DNA of 64,000 bases from assembly GCF_044324785.1 (NCBI RefSeq), contig NZ_CP172127.1, one strand, 5' to 3'. Numbering within the stretch: position 1 is the first letter of the stretch; each line of letters begins with the position of its first letter. Source of the DNA: Escherichia coli (lineage in GTDB: Bacteria; Pseudomonadota; Gammaproteobacteria; Enterobacterales; Enterobacteriaceae). A program made the translations under genes and the position numbers. The notes beneath the pieces were generated by a model. It made no database searches. It was not told where the DNA came from and saw nothing but the letters and a program-made list of their open reading frames with translations. This document shows, piece by piece, positions 48,532 through 49,117 of the stretch.

Positions 48532-48809
48532 TCGCTAAATAATAGAGCAACCTTTAATAATCTTCTGCTGAATAAAGATTATCTCATATATTAATTTTAT
48601 GAGATTTTTTTAGGATTATATCAAGGAGAAGAAACGAACTTATTAAGCTAGAATAGCTGCGGGTGCTTGAGACTGTTTGTCTCAGGTATTCACCGAAAGG
48701 CAGACAGAGAAAAGCCCCACCTGACTATAAATCAAAGTGAGGCTACCCTATGCCTGAACACCATAAGGTTAGCCTCTTACTCGTTGGAAATCAACACAGG
48801 AGGCTGGGA

Positions 48810-48962
48810 ATGCCGCAGAAATATAGATTGCTTTCTTTAATAGTGATTTGTTTCACGCTTTTATTTTTCACCTGGATGATAAGAGATTCACTGTGCGAAT
48901 TGCATATTAAACAGGGGAGTTATGAGCTGGCGGCATTTTTAGCCTGCAATTTGAAAGAGTAA
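48810..48962 (+). CDS. hokA: Hok-family type I toxin
   Basis: 50 aa (MPQKYRLLSLIVICFTLLFFTWMIRDSLCELHIKQGSYELAAFLACNLKE); ACAGGAGG ribosome-binding site. The upstream in-frame extension in the ORF track sits where a mok leader would be. Confidence 0.9.
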   Translation: MPQKYRLLSLIVICFTLLFFTWMIRDSLCELHIKQGSYELAAFLACNLKE

Positions 48963-48969
48963 GAGTGTT

Positions 48970-48997
48970 TGGCGGGAAGTTATTCCCGCCTTTCTTA
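48970..48997 (+). terminator. hokA mRNA 3' hairpin / terminator
   Basis: GGCGGGAA-GTTA-TTCCCGCC stem followed by TTTCTT. Confidence 0.5.
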
Positions 48998-49117
48998 CGG
49001 CGTTGCGCATTCTCATTGCACCCAAATTTATTTCTTTAATGAATGTTTTTTTAGATACGAATGGATTTGGCTATTAAATAAGTTTTTAATCGGGAACAGG
49101 AATGGTTCGGAGCCTTC

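Follow-up and report, generated by a model that had tools for sequence, protein, structure and literature searches.

The closest described relatives of the locus considered here are the hok/sok (parB) module of plasmid R1 and the chromosomal hokA/sokA loci of Escherichia coli C and K-12. In R1, a tac element, a 5' hairpin, a hairpin that combines ucb with the mok Shine-Dalgarno (SD) sequence, mok, an antisense promoter located between the starts of mok and hok, then hok, a 3' hairpin and fbi follow one another, and the module has a terminator of its own after fbi. Pairing of the two ends through tac and fbi defines the inactive full-length hok mRNA, and in the R1 model translation of hok depends mainly on its coupling to mok (PMC9841398). 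Plasmid stabilisation is established for R1, whereas it is reported to be absent for chromosomal hokA in one study (bioRxiv 10.1101/2025.08.07.668861). HokA encodes both disulfide cysteines and is toxic when expressed (bioRxiv 10.1101/2025.08.07.668861). According to the same report, the hokA locus of E. coli C shows neither post-segregational killing nor activation by rifampicin, and the authors have suggested that chromosomal hok systems are inactive (bioRxiv 10.1101/2025.08.07.668861).

In the window, by which we mean the whole stretch of 64,000 nucleotides of E. coli DNA that was analysed, the region between glyS and cspA is very probably a standard, uninterrupted chromosomal hokA/sokA locus belonging to the type I toxin-antitoxin family hok/sok, at its ancestral site, with a mechanism assigned by homology to R1. 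Its sequence and structure elements follow the R1 order from tac through to fbi; they are present, intact and conserved across genera, and no insertion sequence (IS) interrupts them. The locus differs from R1 in being chromosomal rather than plasmid-borne. Transcription, processing, SokA binding and killing would all follow the R1 pattern, by homology with R1 hok/sok.

The glyS gene (46419-48488) and its neighbours are listed from the open reading frames (ORFs) of the window. An intrinsic terminator read from the sequence at about 48507-48531 on the plus strand (GCCTGCC-ATCT-GGCAGGC, then TTTTTT), which is overlapped by weak terminator-type Rfam matches, forms the upstream boundary of the hokA locus. 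The sequence-only reading had described this terminator as followed by about 270 nt of leader, and the distance to the hokA ATG measures ~275 nt, with a predicted 5' UTR of ~149 nt from a start at 48661. On the other side, a yidD-like ORF of 123 codons (49118-49489, plus strand) lies downstream of hokA, and the convergent cspA gene has a thermoregulator leader at 49488-49916 on the minus strand (Rfam RF01766, 482 bits); a yiaG-type HTH gene follows.

The toxin gene itself occupies 48810-48962 on the plus strand and encodes 50 amino acids (MPQKYRLLSLIVICFTLLFFTWMIRDSLCELHIKQGSYELAAFLACNLKE), with cysteines at positions 14, 29 and 46. It scores 83.2 bits against the Pfam family HOK_GEF (PF01848), for which the cut-off is 22. 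Its SD sequence, GGAGG at 48799-48803 (plus strand), stands 6 nt upstream of the ATG and, together with the start region, is paired in the full-length fold with the 3' coding region (helix 9). The earlier description of an intact 50-aa hokA with a strong ribosome-binding site, followed by a 3' hairpin, is therefore borne out by the 50-codon ORF, the HOK_GEF score, the GGAGG and the hairpin at 48971-48990.

Upstream of hokA, the leader aligns with the Rfam model RF01794 at 48661-48812 on the plus strand, scoring 124 bits (gathering score 59) and covering the full model from position 1 to 157. Although named 'sok', this model describes the hok leader in the sense orientation, beginning at the mRNA +1 and ending with the hok AUG; because its position 1 falls on 48661 and its final AUG on 48810-48812, the 5' end of the hokA mRNA is predicted to lie at 48661. 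An R1-type hok locus is matched by this model over the corresponding stretch, between the 5' end of the mRNA and the start codon of Hok, with 87 bits. The leader is 149 nt long in the window and about 170 nt long in R1. The predicted -10 element of the hokA promoter, TAGAAT (48649-48654, plus strand), ends 6 nt upstream of this start and is put forward on the strength of its conservation, as hokA-type loci from 8 genera carry it with unchanged spacing to GGGTGC (TAGAGT in Superficieibacter). It is accompanied by no good -35 element, which suggests a weak promoter. A weak promoter is a known trait of hok. A scan for consensus promoters missed both the hokA promoter and that of sokA, the latter falling below the threshold, and both are predicted from homology and conservation.

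The predicted body of the full-length hokA mRNA extends from the tac 5' end to fbi (48661-49023, plus strand), as judged from the Rfam alignment and from minimum free energy (MFE) and RNAalifold folds. The tac element (GGGUGCUUGAGA, 48661-48672, plus strand) is predicted to pair in the full-length RNA with the complementary fbi element (UCUCAUUGCACCC, 49011-49023, plus strand), the MFE fold containing 11 such pairs (48661-48666 with 49018-49023, and 48668-48672 with 49011-49015). Next to tac, both MFE and RNAalifold place a 5' leader hairpin at 48673-48707 (plus strand; helix 2), with 9 pairs, 97.9% of cells paired and compensatory changes present. It is followed by the ucb/mokA-SD hairpin at 48714-48743 (plus strand; helices 4 and 5, 100% paired), in which GCCCCAC at 48714-48720, the equivalent of ucb or of the anti-SD, would sequester the mokA SD GAGG at 48739-48742. 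Alignments to the Rfam model make this hairpin homologous to the GCCCC and GAGG positions of R1, and it matches the mok anti-SD that has been described (PMC9841398). The mokA frame (48750-48962, plus strand; 70 codons, the ATG having GAGG 7 nt upstream) is in frame with hokA and ends at the hokA stop codon, so that it amounts to a 70-aa N-terminally extended HokA, whereas mok is in a different frame from hok in the R1-type sequence.

Downstream of the coding region, the GC-rich 3' hairpin GGCGGGAA-GTTA-TTCCCGCC (48971-48990, plus strand), followed by UUUCUU, is the counterpart of the hairpin that delimits the truncated hok mRNA left by 3' processing in R1, where GGCGGGCGCAGGCCCGCCTTTTC stands in this position. 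As modelled, the fold of the hokA RNA exceeds chance: the 366-nt RNA at 48661-49026 reaches -136.2 kcal/mol, compared with -97.4 +/- 5.1 kcal/mol in shuffled sequences (z = -7.6). For a truncated RNA ending at 48996 (48661-48996), the MFE structure contains a 13-bp 5' hairpin (48661-73 with 48679-91) and not the published tac/ucb pairing; the complementarity between tac and GCCCC amounts to about 4 bp. Simple folding thus does not yield the published active form; the 13-bp hairpin resembles the metastable 5' hairpin of R1.

On the opposite strand, a SokA RNA of ~52-56 nt is predicted from sequence and fold at about 48706-48761 (minus strand), with ends uncertain by ~3 nt and at a position homologous to that of R1 Sok. 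Its length agrees with the hokA target of 52 bp (PMC3562002). The predicted RNA would have a single-stranded 5' tail complementary to the mokA start region and a terminator consisting of a hairpin, GCCUCAC...GUGGGGC, followed by UUUUCUCU; this hairpin is the reverse complement of the 48714-48743 hairpin of the mRNA. The predicted sokA promoter (48766-48794, minus strand) combines a -35 element TTGATT (48794-48789), a 17-nt spacer and a -10 element TAACCT (48771-48766), and these hexamers occupy the positions of TTGCGC-17-TATCCT in R1 Psok. The expectation that mok and sok should lie within the leader at 48620-48810 thus agrees with a mokA ATG at 48750, a predicted sokA at about 48706-48761 and promoter elements reaching 48794, and alignment revealed no disrupting mutations in the sokA promoter or in tac and fbi.

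These assignments were compared with hokA-type loci in other enterobacteria. A gapped DNA pattern scan of species-representative genomes returned at least 120 loci; the pattern was too loose, and most of the loci listed were chance matches in high-GC Actinobacteria, so that the loci retained were the ~20 enterobacterial ones that a tblastn search with HokA confirmed, together with hokA-type loci drawn from contigs found through the neighbouring gene. An alignment of 16 such sequences, with a mean column identity of 86%, represents at least 8 genera; its sources include Escherichia, Klebsiella (K. spallanzanii and K. michiganensis), Kluyvera, Citrobacter sedlakii, Pseudocitrobacter (three tandem copies), Phytobacter, Superficieibacter and one further Enterobacteriaceae genome. 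From these 16 loci, RNAalifold arrives independently at the tac-fbi helix together with 12 other helices, with compensatory changes in 19 of 91 pairs. Paired cells make up 96.4%, a share that is 39-43% once the partners are shifted by 1-3 columns, and the observed covariation score was not reached in any of 500 column shuffles. The tac-fbi helix has 98.9% of its cells paired and one compensatory pair, and the 3' hairpin (helix 13) has 98.4% and three. On the antisense side, the TTG of the sokA -35 element and T1, A2 and T6 of its -10 element are invariant, as is the U-tract of the SokA terminator. The ATG and SD of mokA are kept in all 16 loci; in 13 of them mokA is a 70-codon in-frame extension, and in the other three it is an out-of-frame ORF of 26-29 codons with its stop just past the hok start. 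The hokA SD reads GGAGG in 14 rows and GGGGG in those of O157 EC4115 and 118UI; outside the alignment, GGGGG occurs in further E. coli, among them E. coli C. The window copy conforms at every conserved element scored, and the word 'intact' used of it earlier is supported, at the sequence level, at each of them.

This agreement also bears on the thought that the structured RNA between glyS and cspA might be a 3' UTR of glyS, or a regulator convergent with cspA, whose likeness to hok is incidental. Apart from the location between a terminator and a convergent cspA, nothing specific speaks for such a role, whereas the Hok domain and mok frame coincide here with a match to the Rfam hok-leader model and with promoter positions homologous to those of R1. 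Moreover, in other genera the hokA-type cassette is found in tandem copies and also at other sites, which marks it as an autonomous module. A glyS- or cspA-related purpose is effectively refuted, and we regard its probability as negligible.

For the hokA/sokA reading, homology with R1 would lead one to expect the following course of events. A weak promoter with TAGAAT at 48649-48654 would give rise to a hokA mRNA of ~363 nt, in which the 5' tac pairs with the 3' fbi and the SDs of both mokA and hokA are buried in helices; the full-length mRNA would thereby be neither translated nor bound by the antisense RNA. Slow trimming from the 3' end to the hairpin at 48971-48990 would strip off fbi, whereupon the RNA would refold and expose the mokA start. 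SokA, a short and unstable RNA from a stronger promoter on the opposite strand, would then pair over the mokA SD and start codon (48706-48761), blocking translation of mokA and, by coupling, that of hokA. If SokA were lost, HokA would be made and would damage the inner membrane.

K-12 departs from this arrangement. The sequence-only reading had associated the hokA region of K-12 with IS150, and K-12 indeed carries a 1443-bp IS150 between glyS and hokA. Its locus lies at the same site, is homologous to the window up to 48738 and from 48778 onward with 96-97% identity, and like the window has a GGAGG SD and an intact toxin ORF. Unlike in the window, IS150 replaces 39 nt (48739-48777) in K-12, taking with it the mokA SD and ATG, the sokA -10 element and start, and the SokA target, and no matching 3-bp target duplication is seen. 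In addition, K-12 HokA differs from the window protein by G36E and N47K, and K-12 is without the yidD-like gene that the window has. In the window, by comparison, a BLAST search with the K-12 IS150 over all 64 kb yielded nothing beyond chance matches, none of them longer than 16 nt, the stretch 48489-49117 does not contain TGTACTG, the terminal heptamer of IS150, and neither the junctions of the K-12-type allele nor those of a second IS150 allele are present. The spacer between glyS and hokA is colinear with that of E. coli C (321 and 322 nt), so that the earlier statement that no IS separates the two genes is confirmed.

This absence is not unusual. Among 5426 complete E. coli genomes, the leader is uninterrupted in 2789 (51%), has the K-12-type IS150 junction in 1644 (about 30%) and carries the second IS150 allele in 1133 (about 21%); these counts sum to 5566, more than the number of genomes, and the percentages are therefore approximate. 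The excess is probably due to cross-matching of the similar inverted repeats of IS150 under the 80% coverage rule. The second allele arose independently, with IS150 in the opposite orientation and a clean AAG target duplication at 48734-48736. Within 45 bp of the leader, IS150 has inserted on at least two occasions. IS-free loci have also been published: that of E. coli C is credited to Pedersen and Gerdes (1999, Mol Microbiol 32:1090) in later sources (via bioRxiv 10.1101/2025.08.07.668861, PMC3562002), and strain NRG857c likewise has an IS-free hokA (PMC7232551). An uninterrupted hokA/sokA locus has thus been known since 1999, is the ordinary, majority form in E. coli and is nothing new. What can be said is that this strain carries the ancestral IS-free allele and not the K-12 laboratory allele, which is of use for the correct annotation of mokA and sokA, usually left unannotated, and serves as a reminder that K-12 represents an atypical state.

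It was also considered whether an IS-free leader combined with the ancestral GGAGG SD might define a rare allele. This idea was rejected, as 895 genomes have GGAGG outside a K-12-type junction and 5 of the 6 sampled are IS-free.

The nearest described counterpart is the hokA/sokA locus of E. coli C (NZ_CP020543.1), which shares with the window the order glyS-hokA-cspA and the IS-free organisation. The two are 100% identical over 48660-48800, which includes tac, ucb, the mokA start, and sokA with its promoter, and E. coli C HokA (WP_001135738.1) is identical to the window protein, with three synonymous differences in hokA. Other differences are found around these elements. The hokA SD of E. coli C is GGGGG instead of the GGAGG of the window; the stretch from the hokA promoter -10 element to +1 shows two base differences; two substitutions lie just before the 3' hairpin; and E. 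coli C has a private change at 49005-49006, between the 3' hairpin and fbi, consisting of a substitution and a 1-nt deletion. In the 3' flank, the window has the yidD-like gene where E. coli C passes directly into the cspA terminator region.

This near identity matters for the earlier suggestion that the locus, being intact, may therefore be functional. That step does not follow, as the near-identical E. coli C locus is reported to show neither post-segregational killing nor rifampicin activation. By analogy with this published negative, the window locus, although intact in sequence, is probably quiescent under laboratory conditions.

One might argue that the differences from E. coli C are decisive and that the window allele, with its ancestral GGAGG and without the E. 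coli C change near fbi, is a fully active killer module, either post-segregational or stress-induced. The GGAGG of the window is indeed shared with 14 of the 16 aligned loci, while E. coli C, O157 EC4115, 118UI and AR_0069 have GGGGG, and E. coli C alone differs at 49005-49006. However, GGAGG is a common polymorphism, as the 895 genomes and the five IS-free loci among the six sampled indicate, and hok translation would rest mainly on coupling to mok and not on its own SD, according to the R1 model (PMC9841398). Furthermore, the window and E. coli C-type loci have in common that a terminator is missing after fbi. A fully active module is therefore unlikely, and the reading of an intact but quiescent hokA/sokA locus is retained.

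The missing terminator deserves attention of its own. R1 has one after fbi, whereas in the window no terminator-like site was found from 49024 up to the ORF that follows. All five Escherichia copies examined, the window included, are without a terminator at this place, compared with 8 of 13 copies from other genera that have one, 15-27 nt downstream of fbi; a terminator here is a feature of the paradigm and not a strict criterion of the family. On the hokA strand of the window, fbi is followed by the yidD-like ORF, and no terminator can be recognised before that of cspA at 49491-49518. In Klebsiella, the order is glyS-hokA-(ABC-F ATPase)-yidD-like-cspA, and in Escherichia the ABC-F gene is gone, the hokA terminator having been lost together with it. 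The spacer between hokA and the yidD-like gene (49024-49117) has no detectable homology to the region upstream of the yidD-like gene of Klebsiella.

Loss of the terminator might suggest that the locus is a decaying remnant, disabled outside the elements scored here, for example because fbi control would end with the terminator, and kept by drift. The contrast between the five Escherichia copies and those of other genera fits such a history, and so does the negative result for post-segregational killing in E. coli C (bioRxiv 10.1101/2025.08.07.668861). In addition, approximately half of E. coli have fixed IS150 in the leader by independent events (1644 and 1133 genomes), which indicates that the locus is dispensable. 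Against this stands the retention of all regulatory elements as far as Klebsiella and Kluyvera, with compensatory changes that would be unexpected under neutrality. The HokA ORF is unbroken, all its differences from E. coli C being synonymous, and the complementarity of tac and fbi is kept. Decay by drift is accordingly a poor account of the locus, to which we assign quite a low probability, and an intact, conserved hokA/sokA module remains the preferred one.

The same gap in termination raises a further idea, namely that the primary hokA transcript, its terminator having been lost in Escherichia, reads through into the retained gene for the YidD-like paralog, YidD being an efficiency factor for the insertion of membrane proteins. 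We consider such read-through doubtful; if it did occur, it would change the fbi-dependent timing, would link a membrane toxin with a membrane-insertion factor and could explain why post-segregational killing by chromosomal hokA is absent.

Finally, it should be noted that the yidD-like gene between hokA and cspA is itself ancestral and is retained in 112 of 5426 E. coli genomes (2%). As most E. coli have lost it, the window keeps the older arrangement at this end of the region.

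Two independent IS150 insertions, at most 45 bp apart and in opposite orientations, are found in the hokA leader of E. coli, in the interval equivalent to 48734-48778 of the window. The K-12-type element (1558-3000 in L001, the K-12 locus) is accompanied by a 39-nt deletion, without a target duplication, and the second type, located around 2056 in L003 (the 2013C-4974 locus), has a clean AAG target duplication; these states occur in 1644 and 1133, respectively, of the 5426 complete E. coli genomes, the counts of leader states overlapping slightly. In E. coli C325 (L006), the Shine-Dalgarno motif GAGG of mokA, the frame that starts at 48750 in frame with hokA, is replaced by GTGTACTG (aligned to window 48739-48742) and thus destroyed. 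The replacement contains the IS150 terminal heptamer TGTACTG, and from its sequence it looks like the footprint of an IS150 copy that has since been lost.

The same part of the leader carries the SokA target and the 5' tail of the predicted antisense RNA, for which there are two distinct E. coli alleles (window 48743-48758 versus loci L005, L006, and L007). One, GCTACCCTATGCCTGAAC, is shared by the window, N3, AR_0069, and E. coli C, and the other, GCCCCTCTATG(C/T)ATAGAC, is found in O157, 118UI, and C325. Codons 2-3 of mokA differ between the two alleles, and the recognition tail of the predicted SokA would necessarily be altered too, such that SokA specificity groups could arise from them.

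Care is needed with the strand of this leader in database searches. Rfam RF01794 matches the window at 48661-48812 (+) and an R1-type hok locus (L004) at 232-403 (+), extending in both from +1 of the hok mRNA as far as the hok AUG. Although the family is named "sok antitoxin," what it matches is the hok leader in its sense orientation, and such a plus-strand match should not be taken for the Sok gene, because the latter is on the opposite strand.

At the other end of the transcript, the intrinsic terminator that follows fbi, the 3' pairing element, in plasmid R1 is absent from the hokA locus of the window. None was found in 49024-49117 or in four other Escherichia hokA loci (loci set against this interval: L013, L083, L090, L091, and L080), which leaves the primary E. 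coli hokA transcript without a defined 3' end. In contrast, 8 of 13 hokA-type copies from other genera, like R1, have an intrinsic terminator 15-27 nt downstream of fbi. Among the matches listed, three hokA-type cassettes, all with a complete leader, lie in tandem in Pseudocitrobacter faecalis (L026, 949-2153), and Superficieibacter sp. (L061) has two copies; the hok of the Kluyvera genomosp. 3 copy (L052) contains an internal stop codon.

Between hokA and cspA lies a 123-aa ORF (49118-49489, +), annotated by NCBI as YidD, whose N-terminal part is YidD-like (Pfam PF01809, 26.1 bits, slightly below the cut-off of 27 bits) and whose C-terminal tail is rich in Cys and Asp (CDCSGCDGAVCRDCD...DCSWDCS). 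Its presence in only 112 of the 5426 genomes, together with the order glyS-[hokA]-ABC-F-yidD'-cspA in Klebsiella spallanzanii and K. aerogenes, shows that this gene is ancestral and has since been lost from most E. coli. The cspA mRNA thermoregulator (49488-49916, -; Rfam RF01766, 481.8 bits) and the adjoining yiaG-type HTH gene (50036-50326, -) are both ordinary in E. coli; the latter exhibits weak similarity to the MqsA antitoxin (26 bits, under the cut-off of 30). Finally, a 23-codon ORF, MRNAVRKAGITSRQTLLLFQIAG (48939-49010, -), antisense to the 3' end of hokA, corresponds to the small protein annotated in K-12 as YsaE (MRNAVSKAGIISRRRLLLFQFAG), from which it differs at 5 of 23 residues.
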